Shown: positions 1 through 57,372 of the stretch, piece by piece
Position numbering within the stretch: the stretch's first letter is position 1
Layout: each line of letters begins with the position of its first letter
NCBI GenBank assembly: GCA_000091205.1
Contig: AP006501.2
DNA: 64,000 bases
Reading direction: 5' to 3' (one strand)
Source of the DNA: Cyanidioschyzon merolae
Taxonomy: Eukaryota
Made by a program: the position numbers and the translations under genes
The notes under the pieces: model-generated
What the model saw: the letters and a program-made list of their open reading frames with translations, nothing else
Told to the model about the DNA's origin: nothing
The model's database searches: none

Positions 1-2331
1 AAGGACGAGGTTGCCGACGATGCCGTTCGGGCACACGTGAGTGCAACGTGGCGCAGCGCTGCACTTTCGCGGGGTAGCGCAAGTGCCTGGCGGGACCTGA
101 AACTGTTTTTAGACGAGCACGTCGCACCGGAGCTACCCAAGATGTTCCGTTTGATCGGACAGCATTGGCTGACCCCGAAAACTGCCTGGTTGTGGTCCGT
201 GGTAAGCAGCTGGCGGGCAATCGCCTGAAAAGATGCGAGTTTCGAGCTGCGAGGCAAAAGCTGCGGCAAATTAGACTCGAAGTCACGACCTTAGGATGGC
301 TTTCTTGGGCTCGTGTTATGAGACGTACGCGCTGTGGCACTGAGACTGAACTGGACAAAGTAGAACCAACTGCGCTACTACATCCAATGATTTCAGTTCG
401 CCGTGGTCTACGTCTGCACCCCATAGCGTCGGGGGTTCGTTGCACCTGCGGCGCGTGCGTTTGTTTGTGCTCGCTTGCGTACGCTCTTTTTCACTAACCG
501 TTTCAGCATGGTGTCACTTGTATTGTGCAACTTGATTGGATTTGCACCTTTTTGGACAGGTACGGCCTCGGTGCGCACCTTGTTGCGCAGATGGGATGCT
601 TGCTTCATGACGTCAGTGCTATGATCCCTTGTCGTGAGGTACAGATGCGCATGAAGCGATAGCGCCCTTTGGCGGGTGCACGGTTGGTGTGCCGGAATGT
701 GCACTCATCTGGTCAGCGTAAATTTATCATGCGGCATGCTTGCACCCAAGTCGACGTATACACGGACGAGCACGACCTTGCCTCAGTTATTTTTGGGGTA
801 CGGAGTAGGGCGCTGCATGATCGTGTAGACGAACCGGGGGATTCCCGATTGCGCCATGGTTATCGGTATCCGCGAAAGCGTTCATCATTCTGCACGGGAC
901 CGCCGCGTTTCAGGAGCCAATGCCGATAACTTCTTTTCGGAATTAGGGTTTGTTCGTCCAATTTTCCTGGTGCCGAGCGCCTGCCGTGTGCGCCCACTAT
1001 GTTGCCACTAGCGTCGATATGGTTATCGCATGGCAACGGAGCGGCTTTTCCATACCATGATTGAAGAAAGCTCGAGGCATGAGCCTGCTTGTACACGCCC
1101 GCGGGCTCGCGGAACGCGTCCCTCACGGACGACTCGGATATGCACTGGCACCGGAGCTGGTGTATTTGCAGCTGCATACCCAATCGATGCTCTTTCGCCT
1201 ACGAGCTGGTGCGTCACATAAAAAGCAAACGAAATTACTAGGTACCGTCATATCTTCGGGACGGCACAGCGTTGCAGGTTGGTCGAGCAGTCGCCCAAAC
1301 TTTGGTGTGAGGCGACGCGGGTCGACGGACAACATAATGGTAACGTCCGACATGCTGCGGTTCCTGGAGGGTTTCGCCGTTTTCCTGGACGGCGTAACAG
1401 GGAGCACTCGTGATTCAAGCTGACACCGAGACAGCGGCCCCACGCGGTCACTTTTAGACGTCCATGGTAAGTGCCATAAAACAGTGCGAGGCTCTCACGC
1501 AGATCCGTGTCGATGATGCTACCAGATACGTTTGCTCATCAGCTTGGCCGCTCTTTCCGACGTTTCCGTGGCCGTATCCACCTATTCGATGTCCATTGGC
1601 AAGCACATTTGGTCATAGAGCACTCGCTAGCAAACAGCATAGCACAGCACTGCAGATCCTCGGCAGTTCTTGGAGCACCGCTCACACCGGTGACGCATCG
1701 CGAGTGCGCACCGCATCCTGTGCCTCGTGCTGAACTAGGTCCGTTTGATCGCATGGCATTCGCGAAAGACGCATGCAGATGGTGTGTATCGCGTTTGGCA
1801 GAGGGCTATGTTATTCAAACCAGTGAACCTGAAACAGTCTGTCATTGAGATGTTTATCGACAAACGCGTGGATGCGGCATCCTATCGTTCGCGGAGCGTC
1901 CTGTCATAGTGCCAGCGAAGAGTCGGAACTCTTACGCGAGCAGAGCTGCATTCGTTTTATTTTGCAAGCAGCCCCGGTCCGTGCAGCTGCTTGCATTCTT
2001 CCGCAGATTTACATCCATCAAGGAGCGTCAAATCGTTCCTGCTAAAGCGCACAGAAACGTCGCGCGAAAGCATGTATCCGAGGATGTCGGGTGACTCCAA
2101 CGGCGAACAAGATCCCAGCCATTGCCGCCTACGATACGATTTGGGTAAGGCGCTTATGGAAACAGGTCGGGCCGATGCAGCCCATTTATGCACAGGCACT
2201 TGCTCTTCGTTGTGTTGACCTATAGTGCAGTCCACTGCTATTGCAATGTTCATGCACACATGCTCCAGATTATCTACCGAAATCATGGGGGTAGGCCGCA
2301 GCGTAGTCTCCAGAAAGCTCATGGAACAGTT

Positions 2332-3456
2332 TCATGGATGAATAGTATCTTTGAATTCAAAGAACGAGTCATGCATGCGAATGAAAGAGTACTCCTCGCA
2401 TGACCCACAACACCCGTATAAATTAGGTTCTTTGTGAAAGATAGCGAACCCGGCGTGCATAAAACCTTGGAAAAACTCATCCACTTCTGGGATAGAGGCG
2501 ATACCCGCGTGCACTTCGATAAGGACTTGATTCACGTGCCGCAGCGCGTGCCAGGTTCTCAAGGCATATTGCTCTTCAGAGCTGAGTTCACGTTGGCTCC
2601 GTCCTTGGCGAAGGAGCTTGTCGGCTGCCCGGAACGCTCCCAAGAAAGAGGTGAACTCACCACCCTCGATATCGATCTTGAGCACCTCGACGACGTTTGG
2701 CAGCTCCAGGTGACCCAATCCAGACATGATCTCCGCCAGCGAATTGTTGCTCTCAGCCGGGCCAAGCGGCCGGCGAAAAAAACGAACGCGTTCCAGAAAG
2801 CTCTCGGAGTGCATCGCAGATGGTGGCGATGATGTTGGGTCAAAGACGAAAAAATCGCAGTCCGGCAAGCGTTCATGAAGCTTCGTTTCGAAACTGAAAT
2901 CGTTGTTGCTACCAAAACTGTACACAATGCAGCGATACGGGAGCCTGAGCTGCTCACGAAACAGCCGTCCCCGGTTCAGGATAGCAGGTGGGTCGCACAC
3001 CCATTTGCCACCGTCTCCGTTGTTACCGATCCGTTCCTCTAAGGCACAGCCGATATCCGGTTCCCAGTTATTGTAGAAAAAAACCGACGGGTTCGGTTCG
3101 AGGGTAACGGTCTGGCGCTTTCGCTGACGTCGTAACCGAATCCTCCGTTGGGCCCAGAGCGCGTCCGACTCGCACCAGAAGCCGAGCGACTCTTTCAGTG
3201 CTCGCGTGTCCTTCGAAGTCACTGGTAGGGTCCGGTCCCAAATCTCCGTCAGGGTTTTCGCGTTGCGCAAAGAGCTCCCACGACGAAGAGCCCTCGACAC
3301 GGAGCGAACGCAGCTGTCATCCACGGCGGGAAGATCCGCGCGCTGGACACCACTAGAGCGTCCGTTGAGAACACTAGTAGCGCGGTATATTACGATAAGA
3401 GCATAAATAAGAAAAGTCAAAGCCCCTGAAGCGATGCACGGTTTTCGCCACGTCAT
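2332..3456 (-). CDS. FkbM-family (Methyltransf_21) methyltransferase domain protein, likely a type II membrane protein
   Basis: The 454-aa ORF 2332..3696 contains YRCIVYSFGSNNDFSFE...DCDFFVFDP...VLKIDIEGGEF, typical of FkbM-type SAM methyltransferases. The first ~52 codons of the ORF are read-through from the Fanzor element terminus and share ELYEKK with the copy-B Fanzor C-terminus. The true start is probably the ATG at 3456, MTWRKPCIASGALTFLIYALIVIYRA, which looks like a signal anchor. Confidence 0.5.
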   Translation of the reverse strand: MTWRKPCIASGALTFLIYALIVIYRATSVLNGRSSGVQRADLPAVDDSCVRSVSRALRRGSSLRNAKTLTEIWDRTLPVTSKDTRALKESLGFWCESDALWAQRRIRLRRQRKRQTVTLEPNPSVFFYNNWEPDIGCALEERIGNNGDGGKWVCDPPAILNRGRLFREQLRLPYRCIVYSFGSNNDFSFETKLHERLPDCDFFVFDPTSSPPSAMHSESFLERVRFFRRPLGPAESNNSLAEIMSGLGHLELPNVVEVLKIDIEGGEFTSFLGAFRAADKLLRQGRSQRELSSEEQYALRTWHALRHVNQVLIEVHAGIASIPEVDEFFQGFMHAGFAIFHKEPNLYGCCGSCEEYSFIRMHDSFFEFKDTIHP

Positions 3457-3540
3457 GCCGGCCACTGAAAACAAACGTCTTTCAAAAGAAAAACGCTGCC
3501 GCCAACGGTGTACAGTAGTTACGGGAAACGCGCCGTAAGC

Positions 3541-6500
3541 AAATCGTCTCCAGCTGAGGTGCAGACGCATCCCCGTCTTTTTCGACCGTCCACCTACTAC
3601 GTCTTTCATTTTCTTCTCATATAATTCCACTTTGAGAGGTCGCCCCACAGGTTCTCTCGTGTCGAATCTGGAGGTCTTTTCTCCAGCACCGCACATCTCC
3701 TGATATTGATAGCGACATTAAAGTCTCGGTTCACAAACTCCATGCGTTTCTTGCCATCTTTGGTTGTGCTTACTAATGCAAGTAGCCCACGAACTTTCGC
3801 CCTCCTTTCCATTTGCTCCTCCGTCAGCGGTCCGTACTTTGCTATTTCGTCAGGGCTCCTCTGGCACTTTTCCATCTCGATCCTTTGAAGTGTACAACAC
3901 AGTTCATGGTGTGTATACGATGTTCGGAACTCATCTACAGGTATTGTAACTAACCTGTCTGCACACCCCTTGTACGTTCTTGTCGTTGGAGCTCGTGTAC
4001 ACTCTTTTTCAGACGCCTAGCGCCCTGCTCCGTATGCTACTACCAGCCTTTGACTTTCATCCTCTTTGAAGGCACTCAGCTGACTGAAAAAGTTCGCGAA
4101 CGCACACTGCTTGCCACCGTATAGATTCATACGCAATCGAGGCCACCGGGGCTTTGTATACTCTTTCCACAGTGCCTCCTAATGAGCAATACGAACTTTC
4201 ATGAACTCCCGAAAAGCTTGAAAATCTGCTCCGCGGCTCGTCACCTCGCTCAAAGCTTCCAGGTGCTCTTTCATTCCTGCATTGCATGTCTCGTTTTTCT
4301 TCCTCGTATTCATCACACCGGATTCTCGATAGTATCTCGCTCTCGGGAACCTCAAAAGACGCATGTCTTTCTGAATGAAGTTGCCGTCTGGACCATATTC
4401 CGCACGCCTGGGTACAGCGATGGCTGTGACATTCGTATTCCCAGGGTCCGCGCCAACGACAAAGTCGTTATACTTCCTTTTCTGTGTGGCACAATCCGCC
4501 TCCTTCTCATCTTCATACCTCGTCACGTCAACGACAACGTCGTCATCCTCTACCTCTTGCGTAGCAGGATCCGCGTCTTTGTTTTCCTCATCCTTCGTGA
4601 CGGGCGCAGCCGAGGACGGAACTGGCCGAGCTGCCTTCAACCGCCGATAGTCTACACACTAGGCTACTCCATCGGTTTCGATCATCCCCGTGAATACCTT
4701 TTGCTTGCTCGTTTTGAGACGTTTGAAATCGAAGATGTTCTTCCAGTACGTCTCCCTGGTTTCACGGGTGAACTCTCTTTTCCTAAAGTTGAACTCCGGA
4801 CTGATTTCCCTCATGATGCCGTAAAGGACGCCGGAGTCGATAGTCACATAATGTGACTTGATGTTGCACAACGGAACGACGTTGAAGCGCTTCCCCATTA
4901 GGAAAGCCTTCTGTCTCTCCCACTCTTCATTCTTGTCCTCACTCGGCTTCATCTCCGCCTTGCGTTCGAGTTCACGGTCCAGAAACACGAAATAGCGCAG
5001 GATGAGGCGATAATGTCTTTCCTTATCTTTTTTCAACTCTGATACCTTTGCTGCTTGATTCGCCAGCCCCAGTACCGCACGGTGCTCTTGTATAGGCGCA
5101 CGGATTACAGAAGCTTCATTCGTGCTCCTGTGTGACGTCTTCTCATCAACGAATTCGATCTCATCTTCATGCTTGCGATCGTTCGTGATGCCATCGATAA
5201 TCGCCCATATTCCTTTGCGAGAGATGCCCGGATAGAGTGCAAACACCGCGCGTATGATGAAACGTTGGAGCTTCATGGTCATATGGTTCCTCAAGTTCGT
5301 GACGTACGTTTTCATCGCCCCGTAGGTGTAAACACTCGAGTCACCCCTGTATCGAGCACCGCCGAAGCGGGATTCGGTGTGGTTTTCGTGGAGGGCATGC
5401 ACTAGCTCATTTTGCTTCCGCGTTTCCGCTGTACCAAGCATCAGATGGCGAATAAAAGTCTTGTCGAATAATTCTTTCCGAACTTCGACTGTTTAGATGT
5501 CCGTCACGTCGCGATACATCCTCTTCACCAAATGCATGAGTCCTGAAGAGGCCTTTACAATACTCAAGGAGTACGACTCGTCATGGGTTCTGATAGCCTC
5601 CCGCACTTTTTCCCTGTACGGATCCTTGATATGTCCAAGAATACAGACTTTCACTACTGTCTCGTCGTACTGTCGTCTTTCTTGCAGCCATTGGCGTCGG
5701 GCTTCCATCTTTTGCTTCTTGGCCCTCTCCAGTTCCTGTGGACTCGGCACTGTTTTTCGGTTTTTTTTCTGGAAACCGGCGACACACTGGGCCTCCGGCA
5801 TCCTCCACTTCCACTTACGTACATTTCCTTTTTATTTTTTTGAAAAAGGAACCCCCTTTGACTGCTTCTTCTATGAACCGCGAACAATGACTTGAATACA
5901 CTCTCTTGAGAGTTGAAACACAACGGAATCGAAAAAATATACTTTGCTACGGCTTCAGAGCGAATACTACTCGTACATTAGAGCAGAATGCTAACGATCA
6001 GGATCGCGTTTCACTTCAACGGCGAGAAGCACGTCATGTATCATGCCCGCCAGATATGGAGATACGCGCATCGACCATGCTACACAAAAAAGGAAGAGAA
6101 ACTAGCAGTTCAATTGCAACGAGATAACGATTTCTTCTCCCTCTATGATACATATTAAAAGGGAGGCAAGATTTCCATGTAGTCGAAACTTTACTTTCCG
6201 GGCGGAAGGCCCTGCGAGCCGGACGAGTCTGCTAGACCAGTCCTTCATGATCTTCCCAGTGCTCAGTGCTGTGGTGATATTCGAGCAACTCGACCGAAAC
6301 GCAGTTTATTCTCGGGCCGGGGACGGGTATGCTGCGTCTGGGCATCGCGCTGGTCGCAGTGGACTCCTACAAAGTCGTTTCGCGCCACACTACACTGTAC
6401 CTCTGTCTGCGCAGAGTGCATGCTCCCAGGATGATATTGAATCCCGACCACGTTTCAGGTGAAGCTTTCCTCGATCCGAATCCCTCAGTGGTATGGCAAA

Positions 6501-6588
6501 GCCGCTCTGCCTCTATGATGCATCGGCATCAGCCGTATAAGCGCTTTTGCTGGAGGTCAAAGCGGGCACTCGGCGCACTTTAGTACTC
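3541..6588 (-). mobile_element. Fanzor1-bearing mobile element, copy A, degenerate
   Basis: DNA and protein-level repeat of 26688..29645. The right 1.76 kb (4826..6588) is about 99% identical to copy B, and the remainder is about 80% identical. No TIRs or TSD are recognisable by eye. Confidence 0.75.
3606..5801 (-). pseudogene. Fanzor1 / TnpB-like RuvC nuclease, disrupted copy
   Basis: ORF fragments are 3606..3875 ([21 protein letters not shown], RuvC-III), 4179..4640 ([18 protein letters not shown], RuvC-I), 4659..5441 and 5493..5801. The 3876..4178 segment is frame-broken relative to copy B. A premature TAG follows ...IETDGVA, and the stop codon at the element end is lost, so the ORF reads into host sequence. 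Confidence 0.7.
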
Positions 6589-6794
6589 ACAAAACGATCC
6601 GTATATCCGAGAGGAAGTAAGCGTCATGGAACTTGAGGATAGGGTGCATCATGATGGACACTTTTTCGATTATTAATCCACATCCCGCAATTTGCGATCC
6701 AAGTACAATCTGAGCGTTTTGTCAAACCGAAAAGAAATCACCATGGCTGCAGACGCCCCCGGCGTGCTCACGAGTTGTTCAGCTCAGCGCCTCT

Positions 6795-15573: not shown

Positions 15574-17352
15574 CGACAGGTGCCTTGTCCGTTTAGCTGC
15601 GTTCGCGTTGCCCCTCAAGACGCAGAAACGATTGCGTCGCGACAACCAAAGTCGTCCCTGTACAGATAGCAGGGTGCGTACGCGTGACACCTGCCGCCCA
15701 CCTCGAGTCGAAGCGAAACGAATCGCTAAGTTTGCAACCCGAAATTCACTCTGTATCGAGCGCTGTCCGGTAAACCAGCCGACTCCTGCGTTCCGGCAGT
15801 GAGCAACGAAACATGCGTGCTGCATAGAGCGCCGATCCGTGCACACAGGCGTTCTGGGCATCAGCGCGCGCTGATCTTCATCCATGCGGCGCTGTCGCCC
15901 GCCAAGTGATGGTGATACCGCATCGCTGCACGTAAGCAGGATTCCGTCGAATGCTTGATTGCTATCGATCACTAGGGAGCAGCGTAGCGTTTCGCGCTAG
16001 CCAATGCCAGGTTCCAAGAAACTCGCGCAAGACTCGTCGTTGGGATGGTGGATAGATCGATGTATCCGGGGAAACGCCGGGTTGCTACGCGGTATGTGGA
16101 CGCTGAATGCGCCGCCGCTTCGGACGCCATTCAGGGACAAAACAGCGTAAAGTCGCTTTTCGACAGGCTTCAGCTTGAGGCAGTCAGAATCTTTTCGCTT
16201 CGTCGAGCGCGTGCTCGAGTCGACGCCCACACAAGGGTATGACAAAGCCGTTCTGGCTGCGTACGGTATCCGCGACGGCGTTAGAGGCACCGCAGAAGGT
16301 GCGCGCCGGAGGCTTGGCACGCAGCGCCTCCCCGGAGCTTACCGTGATGCCTGCGAACGCGTGTGCGCGCGATCGCGTTGCTGCCGATGCCGCATGTGAT
16401 GATTCCCTTTATGCGAATACGCCGCAGCTACGGGATACACGGGACAGCGCAGCCAGGAATGAGCACGGGTTGAGAGCCAGATATTTACCGCTGGTCATCG
16501 AAGCGCTCAAGCTCTCCGATGCGCGGCACCATGGTGACCGCGTATCATGGAATGCGCGACCCGACCAGAGAAAAGAGAGCATCAGCGTCGTCCGATTTGG
16601 GTCCAACGCGATCCCCGATAATCCTGCCAGTCGGTGAGATACTCCCAAACATGCGCATTGATCCGGGGGCACTGGTCATGAAAAAAAAAAGCGAATTTCG
16701 AGACAAAATCATCCCTGACGATCACGCTTCACCATGAACGCACTTCTCTGCGCAGTTGCCAGACGTTCGCACGAACGCAGCGCACCAGTTCGAGCGCTTC
16801 ATAACAGGGGCTTGAACTCGTGGCGCCCGCCAGCGAGGCAAACTCCTCACATCAGAGCTCATTCTCGATGCTTTGCTGTACTCTACAAAGTCTGTTTTGG
16901 AACTTTGGACGCGGGTTACCCATCGGCAGCAGATGCGCTTTTGGGAGATTCCGGGGAAACGCACCAATCATAGGTCGGAAAAACGTGCCGCGCTTCGAAC
17001 TGCGACGCAATGCAGTGCGCCCCGTCACGCGGGCATCTCGTGGAACCTGGCAGCTTCGGGAAGGAGTGGTTGTTGCGTTCTGAGACGCCCACAGGCCTTG
17101 GGGCTATCAGGGTCGACTGGTGCGTTCTTTGAAATTGGACCATATAAAATAACTCTGGCAAACCCGTACAGAGAGCGCTGAGGCACTCGCGACGTTTGTT
17201 TTTCGAGGTCGCTGGGGAGGTGCGGCTGTGGCTTGCGCTTGCGCATCAACGTCTAAGAACAGTCTGTTTGCGGCACTTCGAAAGAAAACTTTGCAGCCGA
17301 TCGGCACAGAGCGTTTCACAAATCGATCCCAATCTCGGAAGCACTGAACTGG

Positions 17353-26559: not shown

Positions 26560-26669
26560 TTGAAGCCATGAGCCCTTTTCGACCTTTCGTTGGTCTGTTC
26601 GGTAGTGGCAGCCGCCAAACTACGCTCTGATGTCGGGCGTCGCCACCAGCGGTGTAGAATAGTGGCGAG

Positions 26670-26880
26670 AAAGTCGACCCAGAAAAATCGTTTCTAGCTG
26701 TCGTGCAGACGCCTCCCCGTCCTTCTCGACCGGCCACGTACTACTGGTTCCATTTTTTTTCATATAGTTCCGCTTTGAGAGGTTGTCCAAGAAAAAGCTC
26801 TCGTGTCCACTCTGAAGGTCTTCTTTCCATCACCGCACATGTCCTTATATTGATAGCGGCATTAAAATCTCGGTTCACAA
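26670..26880 (-). ncRNA. Predicted omega RNA (guide RNA) locus of the Fanzor element. This is a positional inference only
   Basis: In TnpB and Fanzor systems the guide RNA overlaps the 3' end of the nuclease ORF and runs through the element end, with the guide from flanking DNA. Here the ORF stop at 26741 is 53 bp inside the element end at 26688. The 3' region is among the better-conserved parts between copies A and B. Confidence 0.2.
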
Positions 26881-29645
26881 ACTCCATACGTTTCTTGCCA
26901 TTGACTGTACTTAATAATGCGAGTAGTCCTCGAACATTCGCCCACCTTTCCATATGCTCCTCCGTCAGCGGTCCGTACTTTGCTATTTCGTCAGGGCTCC
27001 TCTGGCACTTTTCCATCTCGATCCTTTGAAGTGTACAACACAGTACATGGTGTGTATACGATGTTCGGAACTCATCTACAGGTACTATGACAAAACGTCG
27101 TGCGTACTCCTTATACGTTCTCGTCGTTGGAGCTGGTGTACACCCTTTTTGGGTCTTCGAGCGCGCTGCTCCGTACGCCACTACGAGCCTCTGACATTGA
27201 TCCTCTTTGAGGGCACTCAACCCATTGAAAAAATTCGCGAACGCCCGTTGCCTCCCACAATATAGATTCATACACAGACGAGCCCACCGAGGCTTTGTAT
27301 ATTCATTCCGCAGCGCATCCCAATGAGCAACACGAACATTCATGAATTTCAGAAAAGCTGTAAAGTCCGCTCCGCGGCTCGTCACCTCGCTCAAAGCTTC
27401 TACGTGATCCTTCATTCCTGCATTCCATGTCTCAATTTTCTTCGTTGCATTCATGATTCCCGATTCTCGATAGAATCTTGCTCTCGAGAACCTCAAAAGT
27501 CGCATGTCTTTCTGAAGCAAGTTACCGTCCTTACCATCTTCGGCACGCTTGGGTACAGCGATGGTTATGATATTTGTGTTTCCGGGGTCCGCGCCAACGA
27601 CAAAGTCTATCTCATGCACTTTCAGTGCCGCAGGATCCGCGTCTCTGTTTTCCTCATGCTTCGTCATGGGCGAAGCCGAAGGCACGATAGGAAGAAACGC
27701 CTCCAAGCGCTTGCAGTCTACACACAGGGCTACTCCATCGGTTTCGATCATCCCCGTGAATACCTTTTGCCTGCTAACTTTTGAGACGTCTGAAATCGAA
27801 GAGACTCTTCCAGTACGTGTCAGGGGCTTCGCCGGTGAACTCTGTCCGCCTTCCATCGAACTCCGGACAGATCCCCTTCATGATGCCATGAAGGACGCCG
27901 GAGTCGATAGTCACATAATGTGACTTGATGTTGCACAACGGAACGACGTTGAAGCGCTTCACCGCTAGGAAAGCCTTCTGTCTTTCCCACTCTTCACTCT
28001 TGTCCTCACTCGGCTTCATCTCCGCCTTGCGTTCGAGTTCACGGTCCAGAAACACGAAATAGCGCAGGATGAGGCGATAATGTCTTTCCTTATCTTTTTT
28101 CAACTCTGATACCTTTGCTGCTTGATTCGCCAGCCCCAGTACCGCACGGTGCTCTTGTATAGGCGCACGGATTACAGAAGCTTCATTCGTGCTCCTGTGT
28201 GACTTCTTCTCATCAACGAATTCGACCTCATCTTCATGCTTGCGATCGTTCGTGATGCCATCGATAATCGCCCATATTCCTTTGCGAGAGATGCCCGGAT
28301 AGAGTGCAAACACCGCGCGTATGATGAAACGTTGGAGCTTCATGGTCATATGGTTCCTCAAGTTCGTGACGTACGTTTTCATCGCCCCGTAGGTGTAAAC
28401 ACTCGAGTCACCCCTGTATCGAGCACCGCCGAAGCGGGATTCGGTGTGATTTTCGTGGAGGGCGTGCACTAGCTCATCTTGCTTCCGCGTTTCCGCTGTA
28501 CCAAGCATCAGATGGCGAATAAAAGTCTTGTCGAATAATTCTTTCCGAACTTCGACTGTTTAGATGTCCGTCACGTCGCGATACATCCTCTTCACCAAAT
28601 GCATGAGTCCTGAAGAGGCCTTTACAATACTCAAGGAGTACGACTCGTCATGGGTTCTGATAGCCTCCCGCACTTTTTCCCTGTACGGATCCTTGATATG
28701 TCCAAGAATACAGACTTTCACTTCTGTCTCGTCGTACTGTCGTCTTTCTTGCAGCCATTGGCGTCGGGCTTCCATCTTTTGCTTCTTGGCCCTCTCCAGT
28801 TCCTGTGGACTCGGCACTGTTTTTCGGTTTTTTTTTTCTGGAAACCGGCGACACACTGGGCCTCCGGCATCCTCCACTTCCACTTACGTACATTTCCTTT
28901 TTATTTTTTGAAAAAGGAACCCCCTTTGACTGCTTCTTCTATGAACCGCGAACAATGACTTGAATACACTCTCTTGAGAGTTGAAACACAACGGAATCGA
29001 AAAAATATACTTTGCTACGGCTTCAGAGCGAATACTACTCGTACATTAGAGCAGAATGCTAACGATCAGGATCGCGTTTCACTTCAACGGCGAGAAGCAC
29101 GTCATGTATCATGCCCGCCAGATATGGAGGTACGCGCATCGACCATGCTACACAAAAAAGGAAGAGGAACTAGCAGTTCAATTGCAACGAGATAACGATT
29201 TCTTCTCCCTCTATGATACATATTAAAAGGGAGGCAAGATTTCCATGTAGTCGAAACTTTACTTTCCGGGCGGAAGGCCCTGCGAGCCGGACGAGTCTGC
29301 TAGACCAGTCCTTCATGATCTTCCCAGTGCTCAGTGCTGTGGTGATATTCGAGCAACTCGACCGAAACGCAGTTTATTCTCGGGCCGGGGACGGGTATGC
29401 TGCGTCTGGGCATCGCGCTGGTCGCAGTGGACTCCTACAAAGTCGTTTCGCGCCACACTACACTGTACCTCTGTCTGCGCAGAGTGCATGCTCCCAGGAT
29501 GATATGGAATCCCGACCACGTTTCAGGTGAAGCTTTCCTCGATCCGAATCCCTCAGTGGTATGGCAAAGCCGCTCTGCCTCTATGATGCATCGGCATCAG
29601 CCGTATAAGCGCTTTTGCTGGAGGTCAAAGCGGGCACTCGGCGCC
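26688..29645 (-). mobile_element. Fanzor1-bearing mobile element, copy B, near intact
   Basis: ~2.96 kb repeat of copy A, inserted between the LRR gene and fabG. The Fanzor gene ends at 26741, 53 bp from the element terminus. There is ~750 bp of non-coding sequence 5' of the gene. No transposase ORF, TIRs or TSD were identified. Confidence 0.75.
26741..28883 (-). CDS. Fanzor1-like RNA-guided endonuclease candidate (eukaryotic TnpB homologue, RuvC-like)
   Basis: Three same-strand ORFs: 28883..28560 (basic, NLS-like, KKNRK...[12 protein letters not shown]), 28508..27774, and 27856..26741. Motifs present are [15 protein letters not shown] (RuvC-I Asp), [22 protein letters not shown]...C (TnpB motif flanking a degenerate zinc finger) and [19 protein letters not shown] (RuvC-III Asp). 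No canonical RuvC-II Glu lies upstream of the zinc finger, as in Fanzor1. The frame is broken by a 1-bp insertion near 27778 relative to copy A, and by an in-frame TAA at 28560. Confidence 0.75.
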
Positions 29646-29710
29646 CGATAGAATATACAAAAAGACTAGTACGTCCGAAAGGAGGTACCTTTCATGGAAC
29701 AAAAACGTAG

Positions 29711-30859
<1,149 letters not shown>

Positions 30860-33683: not shown

Positions 33684-35184
33684 TATCCACGTGTAGCTTT
33701 ACGTGCTATTTCGATACGCTTGACACGAGTTTCAGATAAGATATACGCACAACAGAGCGCGTGTGTTGGAGAATCCACGCGCAGTGGCGAGCGCACGTTT
33801 CACGTTCCCGGGAGCGTTCATGAATCGCTACGCACACAGGCGCCTCCCAGTGTTTTCGAACCTGTCGCTTGTTCGCGCTTTCTGTTCATCCAGGCACAGT
33901 TTGAGCCTGAGAGACTGCCCCACAAAGTTGGATTGCATCAGCTTATTAGGTCCCGTGTCTTCAACATCACATATCGTCTGATATTGATACAGTCTCGGTT
34001 GGTGAACTCCTCGCGTTTGCAGCCTCTGGTTGAACCTAACTTTGCAGGGACTCCTCGAAGTTGTGGCCTCGATGCCGTCCAAGTCTCGTTTGCATCCCGT
34101 TGGGCAAACGCTTTTCATCGTCTGTCTCCCCTCTTCTCCGTCTTGTTCTTCCTATTCGTTAATCGCTCTTCTTTATTCGATGGTCGGTGAGAGAGGATTT
34201 TTTCGGTTTTTTTCCAGCAGCCGGCGATGGCATCCCTGCGGGATCTCCGACTACCACGTCCATGCTTCTCCCCTGGATTCTTTTTCTTCAAATGAGCGCA
34301 CTTCAAATGCATCAGCTACAAACCGCGAACATGCATTCGATGACAAGCACCTGGGTGTGAAACACAACTGAGATGAAAGACCACAAGGAGTATGCTCCTC
34401 ATTTGGCAATAGAGAGCTTGCCTTGGAACGCGAGTTGTCCCCGCAACGCCGTTCGTATTACCTGCCGTGTTGGGCTTACTGTTGAACGAGGCTTTTGTGC
34501 ATTCGTTGCGCAACTCGCGAGTGAGCAAACGCTGTCTAGCTGCCCGCTGCTATGACGCTGGTTTGGAGCTCGCTCACTCGTGCGATCAAGCAAGACCTAT
34601 CTCGGGGGAGAGTCTTGTGCACCAGGTGCGTCTCTGTAGCGGCGGACGAACGCAGCTGTGGAGAGAGCCTCGCGTGCTCTCCGAGGCGGGGTACACTCTG
34701 GACTATGGACAGGTGCCTCCGACGTTGCCGGGAGCGCAATCTTTTGGCCTCTTTTCGTGGGACGAGTGCCGCTGCATTGAAACATTCGCTCTCTCAGCTG
34801 TGGAAAGCGTGCGCACACCAGCGTTACAGCGGTACGCGTGTCGTCAAACGGAGCTGCAGCTGCGGTGTGGACTACCCGGACGAGCGGCCTACCACTGACG
34901 TGCAGCACGCGAGCACCACAGAAACTTTGCAGTTGGCGGAGACAACAAGGCATGGGACTGGCGCATGTGCGGCTCTGGTGCACCAGCGAATACCGCCATA
35001 CGAAGCTAGTTATTCGGCATTGGCGGCCAGGTATGCCGAGCGGGCTCCTACTCTAGGCAGCGACTTGACGCCGGCAACTCGAGTGCTCCAGTTTCGATCA
35101 GCGCGTAAGCATGACCGGCGGTTAGAAACGCGACGTTACCTGGAGCACTTTACCAGGGGCTTTGCAGATGCACGCGTTTCTCCT

Positions 35185-51238: not shown

Positions 51239-53572
51239 TCATCGCATTCGCGAGGCACTGGTGGAGAAAAGTTGACGCGCCAGGTCCGCCGAGAACGATG
51301 ACGACGATGGTGGTGGTGGTGGTGGTAGCGGCGATGGCGATGGCGACGATGATGATGATGATGATGATCGACGCAGTTCGTGTGCATCCAGCAACTCGGT
51401 GTCGGTGAGCAGCACCGAGGAGGCCGCATCCGCTACCGCCTCCATTGTGGCATGATCACTTGGACTGGTGCTCTCCGCGATGCCGGCAACGCGACCCGAT
51501 AATGATGGCGATAAAGACGACCGGATGTGATGATGGTTATTGGTGCTGTTGTTGCTATTGGTGCTGCTCATCTCGGATGCCATGTGCCGTCGATGGGTTG
51601 TCATAGCGTGTTCCGATGGTGCACGCCTTGCATCCCCGCTCACAGCGTCGGCAAGCTGGTCGTTGAACTGCATCGCTAGCGTCGACGCCTGCGAGCGATG
51701 ATTCATGGTTGACTGTTGTTGCAGTTGCTGTTGTTGCTGTAGTTGGTGCTGTCGTCGTCGCTTGCGCGCACAGAGACGGCAGTGATTGCCCCAATCACAG
51801 GTGCCTTGTCGTTGCATCATACGGCTGTGACGTTTGCGACAGTTGCCGCATACCTGTGTCGCGCAGCAAGCTTGACAGGTCCGATGTAGTTCTAAAGCAT
51901 CCGCGCTAGCGCGACTTCGCAGCGACTGGGAAGCTGAGCGTCGATCGAGTGCCCCCGACGAGGGCGAGTCAACGACAACCGCCTCGGGATCAGCCTCGCT
52001 CGTGGATCGATCCGCGTGCGGTTGGCTCCGACGCGTTCTCCTCGCAGTCGTTAGAAGCAAACCGTGATCGCTGAGGCCTTGCTCTGTGAGTACTCCGGCG
52101 GCCGCCTGGAATGCGGCATTTCTGGCACCGGCATCCAGGTTGGCTTGTCGACTAGCAGCGTCGCCTCCGAGCGCTGGTGTCTCCCACGGCGACGGCAGCG
52201 AGCTCCGCTGGCGAGCGCGTTGGCGCTGTCGACGAGTGCAGAGGCGACAGGCGTCGCCCCATTGGCATCGTCCATCAGGGGCATGTTTCATCATGCGATG
52301 ATGCCGTTGTCGACACGCCGGGCACACCGGTTTGTTCAGTCCGGGATCACTGCACTTGGGGCAGCGGATATGTCGCTCCAGGGGTGTCGTGCCTGTCGAC
52401 GGACCCAGCTGCCCTGCGCCGTCGTGCGCCACATACGGCGGAATATCATCCTGATCCCAGTTCAAGGCTTGGCTCTGTAGCGCCAGGGTGCTATGCTCGC
52501 CATCCTGGCCGGTTGGTCGTGCGCCCGACAAATAGCCTCGAAAGCTGGTACGGTCGCGTTCGCTGAGCAGGAGCATACCGCCACCAGTGGCGCCAGTACC
52601 CGTTCCAGTACCAGTTTCAGTACCCGTTCCAGTACCAGTTCCGATTCCGGTGCCGCGCTCGGACTCTGGATCCCTGAGCGGAGCAAAGAGCTTTGCTTGA
52701 GCGAGTTCATCATCTGTTTGCAGATGCACATTCTCGGGGATGTCTTCGGTGCCGGATTCTATCGGATTCGGCAGCCGCTCAGCCGGTATCAATACATCTC
52801 GGGCGGGGCGAAGCGCCGGTAGCACTCCTATTTTCACCGCCAAGTCCTGGGCGAAAGCCCGCGACGCGGATATCGGCGGCAGCGTCGGTGGCTCCATGGG
52901 CGACACCGAGGCCGCAGATACAACGCCGCACTCGGCACTGCCAGTGCCTTCGAGCCAGCCCTCAAAAATCTGCCGCTCTGGACTCTGCTTGTTTGGTAAA
53001 TCGGAGAGCATCGCATTCGCTGCCGTCACTGGGTTTCCATCGGCGCGAGTTGCGGACCCTGCACTGAAAGTGCGCCCAGCATCACGACGTACACCCAATG
53101 CAGTGCTTGCCGCTGTTGCAGTCGTTGAGGTCGGCGTATCCGGATCGTAGCGGGCGAAGTCGACGACGGCAAACAGGTAGTGGCTGGTGTCGGTGCTACG
53201 ACCCAGTGGACTAGGCGGTGGGCGCGGCTCGCTCTCCGCGAGTCGCTGGCGCGTCCGGCGGCCGATTCCTTCGCCCAGAGAGGAGTCTCCGGGTGACCCA
53301 TCCCTTGTTCCAAACGTCTCTGCAACGTGATCTGGAAAGTTATCGCTATTTACTGCGGAGTCGTCCCCGCCAAGACCCCAGTAGGCGTCCGACACCGCCA
53401 GATTACCTTCGTCGTCCACGTGCTCCGTCTGTGCACGCGAAGAAGCCGCAGCACTTCTCTTCGTCTGCCGCTCTCCTCGTCGCGGTGCCATGCCACCCAA
53501 ACCAGTCCAGAAACGCTTACTTTCCGTTCCGACTGTGCTGACTGAGGCGTGCGCTGACGGGCTCGTGAGCAC
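51239..53572 (-). CDS. Hypothetical low-complexity protein with a duplicated 8-Cys module
   Basis: 777-aa ORF. Two ~45-aa modules have the pattern C-x2-C-x5-8-C-x2-CR-x-RH-x-MM-x-C-x-WG-x2-CRLC-x-R-basic (nt ~52235..52363 and ~51755..51877). It also contains a (GT)n dipeptide tract, poly-Q and poly-S/P tails. An upstream same-strand ORF 53517..53963 overlaps in another frame next to a C15 homopolymer. Confidence 0.4.
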   Translation of the reverse strand: MLTSPSAHASVSTVGTESKRFWTGLGGMAPRRGERQTKRSAAASSRAQTEHVDDEGNLAVSDAYWGLGGDDSAVNSDNFPDHVAETFGTRDGSPGDSSLGEGIGRRTRQRLAESEPRPPPSPLGRSTDTSHYLFAVVDFARYDPDTPTSTTATAASTALGVRRDAGRTFSAGSATRADGNPVTAANAMLSDLPNKQSPERQIFEGWLEGTGSAECGVVSAASVSPMEPPTLPPISASRAFAQDLAVKIGVLPALRPARDVLIPAERLPNPIESGTEDIPENVHLQTDDELAQAKLFAPLRDPESERGTGIGTGTGTGTETGTGTGTGATGGGMLLLSERDRTSFRGYLSGARPTGQDGEHSTLALQSQALNWDQDDIPPYVAHDGAGQLGPSTGTTPLERHIRCPKCSDPGLNKPVCPACRQRHHRMMKHAPDGRCQWGDACRLCTRRQRQRARQRSSLPSPWETPALGGDAASRQANLDAGARNAAFQAAAGVLTEQGLSDHGLLLTTARRTRRSQPHADRSTSEADPEAVVVDSPSSGALDRRSASQSLRSRASADALELHRTCQACCATQVCGNCRKRHSRMMQRQGTCDWGNHCRLCARKRRRQHQLQQQQQLQQQSTMNHRSQASTLAMQFNDQLADAVSGDARRAPSEHAMTTHRRHMASEMSSTNSNNSTNNHHHIRSSLSPSLSGRVAGIAESTSPSDHATMEAVADAASSVLLTDTELLDAHELRRSSSSSSSSPSPSPLPPPPPPSSSSFSADLARQLFSTSASRMR

Positions 53573-53801
53573 GAGCCCTCGCCCTGCGCGAGCGTGCTTC
53601 TACGGTGGCAGCAACGCGCCTCTTTCCGGGTGTTTCGTGACCTTCCAGTGAGCTAGTCTGCAGGTGCTGACTATTGACCACACTGGACGCCTTGTCCAGC
53701 TGCTCTGGCACCGGTGTTTCTCGTAAGCGGCCAGAAGATATCACCGGCAGCGGGAGCGGGCCTCCGCTGCTGGGCGCCTCCTCTGGCGACGTTGGCTGGC
53801 G

Positions 53802-53816
53802 CCCCCCCCCCCCCCC
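53802..53816. repeat. C15 homopolymer
   Basis: Fifteen consecutive C at 53802-53816, encoding the poly-Gly of the 53517..53963 ORF. Confidence 0.9.
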
Positions 53817-54883
53817 GGTGACGACTGGAGCGATCATTCGCTGCCGTCGCTGCTGCAGCTGATTTTTTACCTCTGACGAGGGGTTTCTATTGTATTTGGA
53901 ATCGCGTATTGCGGGATGGATATTACGATTTATGTAAGTGTTCATCAGGATGCTGAACTTCAAGTTCCATGACAGATACTTCCTTGCGGATGTACTGGTC
54001 GTTTCGGACGTTCTATCATGAGTCTAGTGCCTGCAGTACGCATACGCGTTAGCGCCGAGACCGCTGGAGCGGATATTTCATAGAGCCCGAACGGCTTTGC
54101 CATACGACTGGGGCGGGGGGTGTTGGCCCAAGGCATGATTCACTGGACATCGGGGTCGGAGCGTAGAATCATTCTGGGAGCGTGCAAGCTGTGCAGACGC
54201 ACTGCCTGTGGCAGCAGCGCGAAGCGATATACAAGGAGTACACTGCGACCAGGGCGATGCCCAGACGCTGGCTAACTGCTCGAAATCCCAGAATAAGCGG
54301 CGTTTCTGACGAGTTGCCCAGGTCTCAATAAAGCTCCTGCAACTGGGGGCCTGAAGCACAAGCCTGGCAGGCTCGTGCGACTCGCGGGACCTTACGTCCA
54401 GAAGGTAAACTCTCGACGATACGGAAACCTTTGCCCCCTTTTATCGTTTGTCGTAGAGGGGCAAAGAAAATGTTATCTCGCTACTAGTTTGTAACTAGTC
54501 TCTGTCCTTTTGGGTATATCATGCGCTCGATACGCGCACCTCCATATCTGGCAGTCACAAGACCTGACGTGTATCGCGCCGATGAAGGGAAACGCGATCC
54601 TGATCATGAGCGTGTAGCTCCAACGTACAGGACGCATTTGCGTTGAGGTCATGCGAAAGTATAGTATTTCATCCCAGATGAGTTTCGACCCTCAATGGAG
54701 TGTATTCAAGTGATTTTTCGCGGTTTATAGTAGTAGCGTTCAAAGAGCATTCTTTTCCAAAAACAAAAAATCCAAGGGACAGGTATCGACCTGGATGTTG
54801 GGAATCCTTAAGGGCCATCATCGTCGAATTCGACGAAGAATAACCGAAGAAGAAATCCTCTTTTCGTCGACTATCGAGCGAAC

Positions 54884-55138
54884 ATGAGCGAACGATGCGG
54901 ACGAAGAAGACCGAGAATGGATGTAGGCGAGAAAGTGTGTGCCCGACGAGACGATGACGAGACTGTAGTGGCACAGAGGGCGCGGGTTCTGGGAATCCTT
55001 GGAAAATTGCGTTCAGCCAGAGGCAATAAACGTATGGTGCTCGTGAACCGAGACTTTAACGCCGTCATCAATATCAGACGATGGGCGGTGCTGAAGACGA
55101 GACACGAGGAGCTTACGCGATCTAGCTTTGTGGAGTAG
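54884..55138 (+). pseudogene. Solo relic of Fanzor/TnpB C-terminus (RuvC-III region)
   Basis: ETVVAQRARVLGILGKLRSARGNKRMVLVNRDFNAVINIRRWAVLKTRHEEL aligns with copy [47 protein letters not shown]. The antisense reading TALKSRFTSTIRLLP matches antisense ORFs in copies A and B. No upstream nuclease domains remain. Confidence 0.6.
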
Positions 55139-56125
55139 CCTCTCATGGGCGATGTGTACAGGGAGAAGCTGAAACCGATAGCAGGTCGCCTGTGTAGATA
55201 GGCTGGGAGGCGTCTGCACGTGGGTGTCAGTTTACGATCTCGAGGCGACGCCTCCAGTGGTGCGGAAAGGCCGTTCTGTCTGCGCTAATGCGAGACGCGT
55301 GGTGGTTACCTGGGCCCTGCTTTTCCCTTATAGGCTATTACGTGAGCCCTTGGGCACCTTCAGCACAGAAACGTTTCCAGTCTGCAACGTGGCGGGATAA
55401 GCGAGTCGAGCTCGGAGCGCTCCGTGTACAATCACGCTGTCTCCTTTCGCAAGTTACGATGCGTACCTGTTTCGCGGCTGGATTTTTGGCACCAAAAGCG
55501 CTGTAGGTACCGGGTTCAGGTACAGTTCCATCTCGCCAGATGCTGTTGGTGTCGAAGGATCGGCTTCAGGAGGAGGTAAGCGTCCGGCATTGCGTACCAA
55601 GAGGTCTGCGACGAGGCGTTCATCGCGCAGTTCGTCGCATCAGCAGGCGGGCACTGCTTGTAATCGACTGCCTGAGCGCTTCATTGAGACGATTCATAAA
55701 AGCCATCGTCGCCTTCAGATATCACTCTGAGAACTGTTTGGACGCTGCAGAACGATTCTCGGGATGCGCGAAACATGCCCAGAGTCGGCACCTGGCATGG
55801 GGTAGGGTCCTGGTCTGTTGTGGTGTAGGATCCTTAAATCTAACCAGGTTTCTGGCGATGCGCATCCGCTTCTGATGACCACGAAAGAGGCCTCGTTCGC
55901 TTCACTAGCGCATGTGTGTGTTCGGCAAGTCCCAGTCAAAATGCCCAACAGGTATAGAGGCTTGCTCATTCCAAAGGAACAGCGGTTATCGAGTCTACAG
56001 TGGGCGCTCGCGCCACCGCGGGCTCATTCTCACACGCTCACCGCAGAGGTTCGTTTCCTAACGAGCAACTCGCGCGTCTGCAGGCGCATTCTCCAACGAG
56101 ATGCCGACCCTGAAAACGTATATTT

Positions 56126-56345
56126 CGCTGTATTCCAAGTCTGGAATCATCCGAGGCACTAGATGCGAAGGCAGCCGGTTTCGGGAAGTGCTCGTCCCAG
56201 TCTGATACCGGAAATCCCGCTGTATTCCAGGTCTGGAATCATCCGAGGCACTAGATGCGAAGGCATCCGGTTTCGGGAAGTGGTAGTGCCTCCATCCGAT
56301 CGTATATCTCGTTGTACCCCAGGTCTGTAATCATCCAGATCACGA
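56126..56345. repeat. 92-bp tandem repeat, ~2.4 copies
   Basis: cgctgtattcca(a/g)gtctggaatcatccgaggcactagatgcgaaggca(g/t)ccggtttcgggaagtg repeats at 56126 and 56218, with a degenerate third partial unit at 56310. Confidence 0.7.
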
Positions 56346-56622
56346 CATACATAGGCATTATGTGTCGGGTACTCGACATTCCGCCTTGCTCGTGCTTCGC
56401 GCTGGCATACGATACAAATGAAGCACAGCCGCAGTTGCGCAGTCGCGGTTGCCAGGCCCGCGTTGCGTACGGCTGCGATGCCCGCCGGAGGACACAGCCT
56501 TGTGCTACGCTGGGCTCGTGCGGCGTTGCGCCCGTATACTGTTGGGCTCCGTTGGAGACGGTATGTCGGTTAGGTGGAAGCGGCTTCAAGCACAGCTCGG
56601 TTTCCTGTCTAGTGGACTGCGC

Positions 56623-57372
56623 ATGCAGCATACAATTTCGGAAAGCAAAGCACAAGGTGAACGAGCGCAAACTATAGCAGAACGACTGTGCAAGGTACGG
56701 GAGCGAATTCAAGTCGCTGCGCTTGCCGCAAAACGCGACCCTGCACGGGTTCGCCTAGTTGCTGTGAGCAAAACGCACGCTGCCGGTACCGTGCGGGAGG
56801 CGTATGACGCAGGTCAACGCCACTTTGGGGAGAACTACGTCCAGGAGCTGGTTGAGAAAGCGGAACAGCTACCGACAGACATAAACTGGCACTTTATCGG
56901 ACACCTGCAGAGCAATAAAGTGAGGACGCTGTTGAGTGTCCCGAACCTCTGGTGCGTTGAGACTGTCGATCGACCCAAGCTTGCGAATACACTGAACCGC
57001 CTCATGGACGAGTTGCGTCCCGACGGAGGTCCGATACCTGTGATGGTGCAGGTGAATGTCAGCGGGGAAGCGAGCAAGGCCGGGATAGAACCCGCTGCCG
57101 CTCCCGAACTCGTCGAGCACATCCTGCAGGCTTGCCCGCGGCTGAAGCTCCTCGGTTTAATGACGATAGGCTCGCCGGACCCGAGTCCAGAGCCTGTGGC
57201 GTTCCAAAGGCTCTCGCACTTACGAGACCAAATACAGGACCGGTTTAGGTTTCAAGAGCCGCTCGAGCTCAGCATGGGTATGAGTGATGACTTTGAGGCG
57301 GCGGTACGCATGGGTAGCACCAATGTACGCATCGGATCCACTATATTCGGGCCGCGTGTCTATCCGCAATGA
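56623..57372 (+). CDS. PLPBP: Pyridoxal-phosphate homeostasis protein (YggS/PLPBP, alanine-racemase-fold)
   Basis: VRLVAVSKTHAAGTVREAYDAGQRHFGENYVQEL...WHFIGHLQSNKV...LSMGMSDDFEAAVRMGSTNVRIGSTIFG is the canonical YggS family. The ORF is open from 56449. The ATG at 56623 gives a 249-aa protein. Confidence 0.8.
   Translation: MQHTISESKAQGERAQTIAERLCKVRERIQVAALAAKRDPARVRLVAVSKTHAAGTVREAYDAGQRHFGENYVQELVEKAEQLPTDINWHFIGHLQSNKVRTLLSVPNLWCVETVDRPKLANTLNRLMDELRPDGGPIPVMVQVNVSGEASKAGIEPAAAPELVEHILQACPRLKLLGLMTIGSPDPSPEPVAFQRLSHLRDQIQDRFRFQEPLELSMGMSDDFEAAVRMGSTNVRIGSTIFGPRVYPQ

Follow-up and report, generated by a model that had tools for sequence, protein, structure and literature searches.

The window, as we call the 64-kb stretch of Cyanidioschyzon merolae DNA analysed here, encodes host proteins that are exact matches to the C. 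merolae 10D entries BAM82953-82973, and its locus tags (CYME_CMS403C, CMS408C) presumably place it on chromosome 19, going by the CYME_CMS naming scheme. Between CMS403C (51242-53491, -) and a YggS-family gene (56563-57372, +) the NCBI annotation is blank, and this 3.07-kb head-to-head intergenic region contains an open reading frame of 84 aa at 54884..55138 (+). Its full translation is MSERCGRRRPRMDVGEKVCARRDDDETVVAQRARVLGILGKLRSARGNKRMVLVNRDFNAVINIRRWAVLKTRHEELTRSSFVE, which contains GNKRMVLVNRDFNAVINIRRWAVLKTRHEEL and had been summarised by the extract ...GNKRMVLVNRDFNAVINIRR... A first-pass annotation had described this frame as a solo Fanzor relic, the third member of its family in the window, lying on the opposite strand to the others and without any upstream domains.

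C. merolae has a single Fanzor1 family, CMe-1A (Bao & Jurka 2013, Mobile DNA 4:12; PMC3627910), and we aligned the consensus given in Additional file 2 of that paper to the window by BLASTN. The published consensus is 3,169 bp long and represents ~150 copies, each ~80% identical to it; it encodes a 734-aa Fanzor1 protein in one exon, has no TIRs, and was reported with undetermined TSDs and with no transposase (PMC3627910). A separate repeat of ~70 copies, TE-N2_CMe, is 95% identical to the 5' 635 bp of CMe-1A (PMC3627910). The family, its copy number and its 5' relationship to TE-N2_CMe have therefore been known since 2013, and what we add is only mildly new: a deletion derivative shared by two copies and some regularities of the family, nothing else.

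The alignments revealed four copies and three small fragments rather than three copies (Table 1). The remark on strand was correct, as the relic occupies the plus strand and the other three copies (A, B and the fourth) the minus strand. Past mobility of the family, which the annotation had also deduced, is real and already on record through the ~150 published copies (PMC3627910).

Table 1. CMe-1A copies and fragments in the 64-kb window, and the parts of the relic
Feature	Position	Strand	Relation to the CMe-1A consensus
Small fragment	839-895	+	28-84, 79% (BLASTN)
Copy A, full-length CMe-1A	3476-6724	-	4-3169, 84-87% (BLASTN)
Small fragment	16214-16284	-	187-255, 76% (BLASTN)
Copy B, full-length CMe-1A	26642-29797	-	1-3147, 84% (BLASTN)
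Fourth copy	33837..34381	-	5'-truncated at ~790; same internal deletion as the relic
Fourth copy, BLASTN-aligned part	34199-34381	-	790-969, 69%
Relic, 5' boundary motif CTGATTTTTTACC (GAT + T-run)	53857..53869	+	directly before position 1
Relic, 5' non-coding region	53870..54784	+	~1-905; up to ~54509 equivalent to the 635 bp of TE-N2_CMe
Relic, 5' part	53908-54770	+	37-896, 79% (BLASTN)
Relic, N-terminal coding remnant (~57 codons)	54785..54968	+	906 to ~1076
Relic, internal deletion junction	54968..54969	+	~1077-2832 gone (~1.76 kb)
Relic, C-terminal coding remnant (~85 codons)	54969..55221	+	2833-3088; NRD at 55046-55054
Relic, 3' part	54976-55221	+	2840-3088, 71%, E 8e-31 (BLASTN)
Inverted ~70-bp piece	55224..55291	-	204-273; adjoins the relic's truncated 3' end
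Small fragment, core of the inverted piece	55239-55284	-	210-255, 83% (BLASTN); whole piece 55224-55291

Anatomy and coding content of the relic

We interpret 53857-55221 (+) as an old, inactive and internally deleted copy of CMe-1A, ~1.37 kb in length (probability about 0.9). In a finer alignment it is colinear with consensus positions ~1-1076 and 2833-3088 at 71-82% identity, and the fragment described as solo is in fact contiguous with ~1.1 kb of the element's 5' end. A GAT followed by a T-rich run stands before consensus position 1 in nearly all copies, both in the window and in 80 metagenome loci, and the sequence upstream of it is unrelated from copy to copy; as the relic has this boundary motif, its 5' end is complete. 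Either the published consensus is ~12 bp short, omitting the GAT and its 8-10-nt T-rich run (e.g. 29798-29819, 53857-53869), or insertion takes place immediately 3' of a T-rich target, and that target would then be a candidate TAM.

The 5' non-coding region of the relic is ~70% identical to its counterpart in copies A and B. The original start codon has mutated from ATG to ATC (54785-54787), and the N-terminal coding remnant is heavily diverged, with the peptide RRDDDETVV corresponding to RRQYDE(T/M)VVK of the family. The internal deletion has removed REC/WED, RuvC-I, RuvC-II and the TNB/Zn-finger region, and with them the nucleic-acid-binding domains and the RuvC-I Asp and RuvC-II Glu that the parent family carries as D307 and E479. 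Because consensus ~1077-2832 is deleted, the relic is a gene fragment and not a Fanzor gene. The C-terminal remnant has a premature TAG at 55136-55138, and homology ends at consensus 3088, so that the last 81 bp (3089-3169) are missing, including the family stop codon, the subterminal hairpin-like sequence and the T-rich end. Other copies have a stop at ~3108-3110 and, near the 3' end, a conserved GCCGCCA...TGGCGGC hairpin-like sequence and a T-rich terminus. The relic thus combines colinear homology to CMe-1A with a 5' terminus that is present and a 3' terminus that is absent. Its identity to the consensus is within the published range of the family, from which it differs by the ~1.76-kb deletion and the missing 81 bp. 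A search for TIRs in the relic found none, the sole match being a 12-nt palindrome. The 84-aa frame is fortuitous, running across the deletion junction from an internal ATG, and the assembly collection lists no gene with such a product.

The inverted piece that adjoins the truncated 3' end is 59% identical to the consensus over 87 aligned bp, and 83% over its 46-bp core, in comparison to 51% for the relic's own equivalent segment. Its greater likeness to the consensus than to that segment indicates that it comes from another copy and is not an internal duplication. The three short stand-alone pieces (839-895, 16214-16284 and 55224-55291) are all from the 5' non-coding region and have no Rfam match, and two of them have the common core CAGAACGGCTTTGCCATACCACTG.GGCGTCG.CTCGAG. 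Inverted pieces of consensus 84-282 also lie just upstream of some copies in three metagenome loci (L014, L037, L050). An origin of the 5' region from 5S rRNA or a SINE was considered on account of a 'GCCATACCAC'-like stretch (consensus ~220-235, also found stand-alone) and was rejected, as there was no Rfam match and there were no tRNAs.

The fragment was identified as the RuvC-III end of the nuclease by several routes. In a tblastn search of the window, the 84-aa frame matched the C-termini of copy B (26941-26789, -; 53% identity over 51 aa, E 8e-12) and copy A (3821-3648, -; E 4e-11), as well as the fourth locus (34114-33953, -; E 1e-10). When the repaired protein of copy B was searched against a database, 93 homologues were obtained, almost all of them from hot-spring metagenomes of the JGI, and an alignment of 18 of these was made into a profile HMM of length 643 (A1). 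Invariant residues in this alignment include D307 (GADPG), E479 (VDEFRTS) and D547 (NRDFNAA). Against the six-frame translation of the window, A1 matched the relic at 54947-55162 (+) over profile positions 572-638 (26 bits, E 9e-10); the fourth locus (33837-34381) was matched weakly. The first-pass annotation had made its proposal depend on an alignment to TnpB/Fanzor C-termini in a profile search, and the relic does align; the frame lies exactly where it was placed, and tblastn, A1 and BLASTN with the consensus agree on what it encodes. The RuvC-III motif of the relic (N-R-D ... N-A-A; VNRDFNAVINIRR at 55043-55081) lines up with family columns D547/N549/A551 and with the WNRD of SpuFz1 and PpFz1. 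When A1 was compared to the PDB, the NRD motif was aligned in the Fanzor1 proteins of Parasitella parasitica (9cf0, 8e-17), Spizellomyces punctatus (8gkh, 1.4e-12) and Guillardia theta (9cer, 0.015). Pfam and NCBIfam scans of the 84-aa frame alone gave no match, so the Fanzor assignment of the relic rests on the family-specific profile. The same scans of long copies A and B gave nothing significant, with PF07282 (Cas12f1-like TNB) the best entry at E 0.11 in copy B; this domain reached E 5.6e-6 in a distant family member (P0091). As a single-sequence query of the PDB, the 371-aa frame of copy B found no Fanzor. PF26935 is precomputed for many of the family homologues. Judged from these alignments, the fragment is the C-terminus of a Fanzor1 protein, reduced to the RuvC-III part.

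At the profile level CMe-1A matches the solved structures of the Fanzor1 proteins SpuFz1, PpFz1 and GtFz1 (PMC10432273; Xu et al. 2024, PMC11423790), and it has a D-E-D RuvC triad; in comparison to these proteins the relic keeps the RuvC-III NRD and has no RuvC-I, RuvC-II, REC or WED. We infer that it cannot make a nuclease. TnpB and Fanzor systems produce their omega-RNA by transcription of the element's right end (Saito et al. 2023, PMC10432273; Jiang et al. 2023, PMC10530073). The CMe-1A consensus has only ~59 bp 3' of the stop codon, and any omega-RNA of this family would therefore overlap the end of the ORF. With its terminal 81 bp gone and only part of this region kept, the relic can, by analogy, probably provide neither a full guide-RNA scaffold nor a working right end. 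RNAalifold on the 3' 270 nt of 59 copies gave -3.1 kcal/mol, with no convincing consensus structure or covariation, and hairpin candidates in this alignment showed broken pairs rather than covariation. Rfam returned nothing at E values up to 10 in 53700-56500, and nothing at gathering scores in the whole window.

Decay of the relic and its relatives in the window

Between consensus positions 2833 and 3110, differences from the consensus affect 32%, 25% and 30% of codon positions 1, 2 and 3 in the relic, in comparison to 12%, 10% and 20% in 62 longer copies. The pattern in the longer copies is that of a protein once under purifying selection, and the relic does not have it. The even distribution of differences over codon positions, together with the lost start codon, the premature stop and the missing catalytic Asp and Glu, identifies the relic as a pseudogene fragment. 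Divergence from the consensus is lower in the relic's 5' non-coding part (~20%) than in the coding remnant on its 3' side (~29%). Gene conversion from other copies, of the kind seen between copies A and B, could explain this difference, and so could, equally, constraint acting on the 5' part or descent from an older sub-lineage that had diverged.

The relic takes up 44% of the intergenic region. Its GC content of 51.4% is close to that of the family consensus (52.3%) and lower than that of the flanking genes (57-61%), so the AT-richer dip is caused by the element itself; the description of the setting as AT-richer and gene-poor was accurate. The remainder of the intergenic region (55292-56562) has no repeats in common with other loci except for a local 92-bp tandem array. 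This array (56116-56336; 2.4 copies, 82% matches) is in the YggS promoter region and is one unit shorter in three related strains (L086, L092, L093). On the other side, the promoter region of CMS403C contains a run of ~17 C (53801-53818), ~40 bp ahead of the relic's 5' boundary. An empty orthologous site was sought in order to define the termini, and all eight syntenic contigs found in metagenomes and assemblies (L082, L083, L086-L088, L091-L093; 98-99.4% identical) carry the relic. Because these related strains are only 0.6-2% diverged, its fixation says little about constraint. The relic has probably been drifting neutrally in the head-to-head promoter interval of CMS403C and the YggS gene.

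Both full-length copies are pseudogenes. Their ~700-aa reading frame is interrupted by several in-frame stops in copy A and by an in-frame TAA and a frameshift in copy B, and one TAA is common to both (DVTDI*TVEV). Apart from the Fanzor frame they have no long reading frame, and no TnpA (Y1 or serine recombinase) was found in them, whereas elements of the IS200/IS605 or IS607 type carry a TnpA gene. Copies A and B are 98-100% identical to each other, but this holds only for consensus 155-1800; the first 154 bp are 62-65% identical and the 3' 1.4 kb mostly 81-84%, as between unrelated copies. As the high identity is limited to an internal tract and the ends are unrelated, the ~1.65-kb tract looks like the product of ectopic gene conversion between two old, independent insertions 23 kb apart.

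The fourth copy is the closest relative of the relic. It fills most of an 868-bp head-to-head region between a gene for an M48 peptidase (BAM82963) and one for ETF-alpha (BAM82964), and a single BLAST alignment of relic 54664-55145 to 34381-33908 crosses the deletion junction unbroken (65%, E 2e-23). Scored against a consensus of the deletion form, the relic and the fourth copy have derived sites in common at 41/171 positions of the N-terminal part and 31/246 of the C-terminal part, and small indels are also common to both. At 32 sites of the C-terminal part the two agree on a base other than that of the consensus, against ~9 expected for independent divergence, and most of these 32 states are rare among 62 other copies. 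The two copies are 21 kb apart, in opposite orientation and with unrelated flanks. The common junction and derived sites, combined with the unrelated flanks, imply that the deletion predates both insertions, and the deleted form must accordingly have dispersed at least once.

Insertion context and alternative readings

To describe the insertion context of the family, we used ORFs of at least 150 aa as proxies for genes and scored the window copies together with loci L002-L081, as raw counts by site. At 26/31 unique sites the neighbour upstream of the element runs on the opposite strand (p 2e-4), and at 26/36 sites the one downstream shares the element's strand (p 0.011). Among the 22 sites with both neighbours, 14 are divergent, 1 is convergent and 7 are tandem (chi-square p 1e-4 against 1:1:2). 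A host ATG often lies just 6-104 bp past the 3' end of the element. At the other terminus, the longest ORF of a FabG-like gene next to copy B (29711-29819) starts inside the element's 5' end, with MVNVN... encoded by the reverse complement of consensus ~15-30; either this gene truly begins further downstream, or the end of the element supplies the 5' end of a host gene.

Several other features vary among copies. Many begin at consensus ~646-735 and are without the TE-N2_CMe-like 5' 635 bp (L005, L009, L011, L016, L031, L036, L041, L055, L058 and others), which suggests that the CMe-1A family has several 5'-end variants. In two of these loci (L016, L041) the final ~85-95 bp of the element occur on their own ~750 bp upstream, and head-to-head pairs of CMe-1A occur in L006, L022, L074 and L076. 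The CMe-1A ORF also contains a variable tandem repeat just before RuvC-I (consensus 2117-2196), with a unit of ~75 bp (25 aa, acidic) that is present 1 to 5 times per copy (L003, L008, L009, L011, L031, L039, L043, L053 and others); it is also present in copy A at ~4450-4600, and P0008 gives a protein view.

Three other explanations of the locus have to be weighed against an internally deleted CMe-1A copy. The relic could be a TE-N2_CMe copy that came by chance to lie beside an unrelated solo fragment of a Fanzor 3' end, and stand-alone pieces do exist, as ~70 TE-N2_CMe copies have been reported (PMC3627910) and metagenome loci L017, L026, L035 and L039 contain isolated pieces of consensus ~2-644. 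Judged through the published correspondence with CMe-1A, the whole 635-bp equivalent of TE-N2_CMe is present in the relic (~53870-54509). However, the relic runs on for ~440 bp of CMe-1A beyond it before joining the 3' end of the gene: homology continues unbroken past position 635 (82% over the 337 bp of consensus 560-896, and likewise 82% over 636-896) into the N-terminal coding remnant. The fourth copy has the same junction of N- and C-terminal parts in another genomic context, which two chance juxtapositions would not produce, and we consider this explanation very improbable. A recent transposition or duplication of copy A or B, the local hopping that the first-pass annotation had entertained, is hardly credible. 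The C. merolae genome is ~16.5 Mb in size, and with 150-220 copies in it only ~0.6-0.85 would be expected in 64 kb, where four are found. The copy numbers behind this range go back to PMC3627910, and because published counts may omit short, decayed pieces we do not lean on the excess. With 69-70% identity to copies A and B and 79% to the consensus, the relic is nearer to the consensus than to either copy, which argues against a recent hop; its nearest relative is the fourth copy, at 65%, and copies A and B are themselves pseudogenes with unrelated ends, whose likeness has the pattern of gene conversion.

Co-option by the host, with the relic serving as part of a bidirectional CMS403C/YggS promoter, as the source of a regulatory RNA or as the gene for an 84-aa peptide, seems to us very improbable. 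The share of the head-to-head region that the relic occupies, its presence in all eight related strains, the preference of the family for divergent intergenic regions and the better conservation of the 5' non-coding part relative to the coding remnant would all be in keeping with such a role. Fixation is little informative at the divergence of these strains, however, and in the most divergent of them identity is, if anything, lower in the intergenic stretch (97.8%) than in the genes (98.9%). The relic has no codon-position bias, no gene call and no Rfam match, and the bias in insertion sites fits a target preference, or tolerance of insertions in promoters, equally well. We therefore retain the reading of an inactive, internally deleted CMe-1A copy, a real but ordinary feature that is a non-functional remnant and matters little in itself.

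Deleted derivatives and what they may indicate about CMe-1A

The dispersal of the deleted form bears on how CMe-1A moves. As a non-autonomous element, a deletion derivative of this kind presumably depended on mobilisation in trans. It is possible, though we hold it only tentatively, that the relic and its sister are the last traces of a ~1.4-kb "mini-CMe-1A" that had no nuclease of its own and was trans-mobilised. Such an element would consist of ~1.08 kb from the left side of CMe-1A and ~0.34 kb from the right, the latter being the presumed omega-RNA and right-end region, and would if real parallel in a eukaryote the non-autonomous IS200/IS605 derivatives that carry guide RNAs. The resemblance to MITEs and to PATE-type derivatives of IS200/IS605 lies in an internally deleted form that retains parts of both ends and is found at more than a single site; in contrast to these, there are here only two copies, both decayed, one 5'-truncated and the other 3'-truncated, and neither TSDs nor TIRs were seen. 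No further copy with the relic-type junction was found in 80 metagenome loci (~600 kb), a sample that is biased against deleted copies because the loci were chosen by a peptide motif within the deleted region. The paper that established CMe-1A (PMC3627910) describes neither such a deletion derivative nor its recurrence.

For genome annotation, 53857-55291 is best masked as a CMe-1A-derived repeat, and the 84-aa frame should not be called as a gene. The head-to-head preference of the family, with insertions often tens of bp upstream of host start codons, could merit a genome-wide look. The spread of internally deleted derivatives hints at which parts of CMe-1A act in cis, and if many mini-CMe-1A copies were to exist across the genome, their common boundaries would mark the cis-acting sequences needed for movement.
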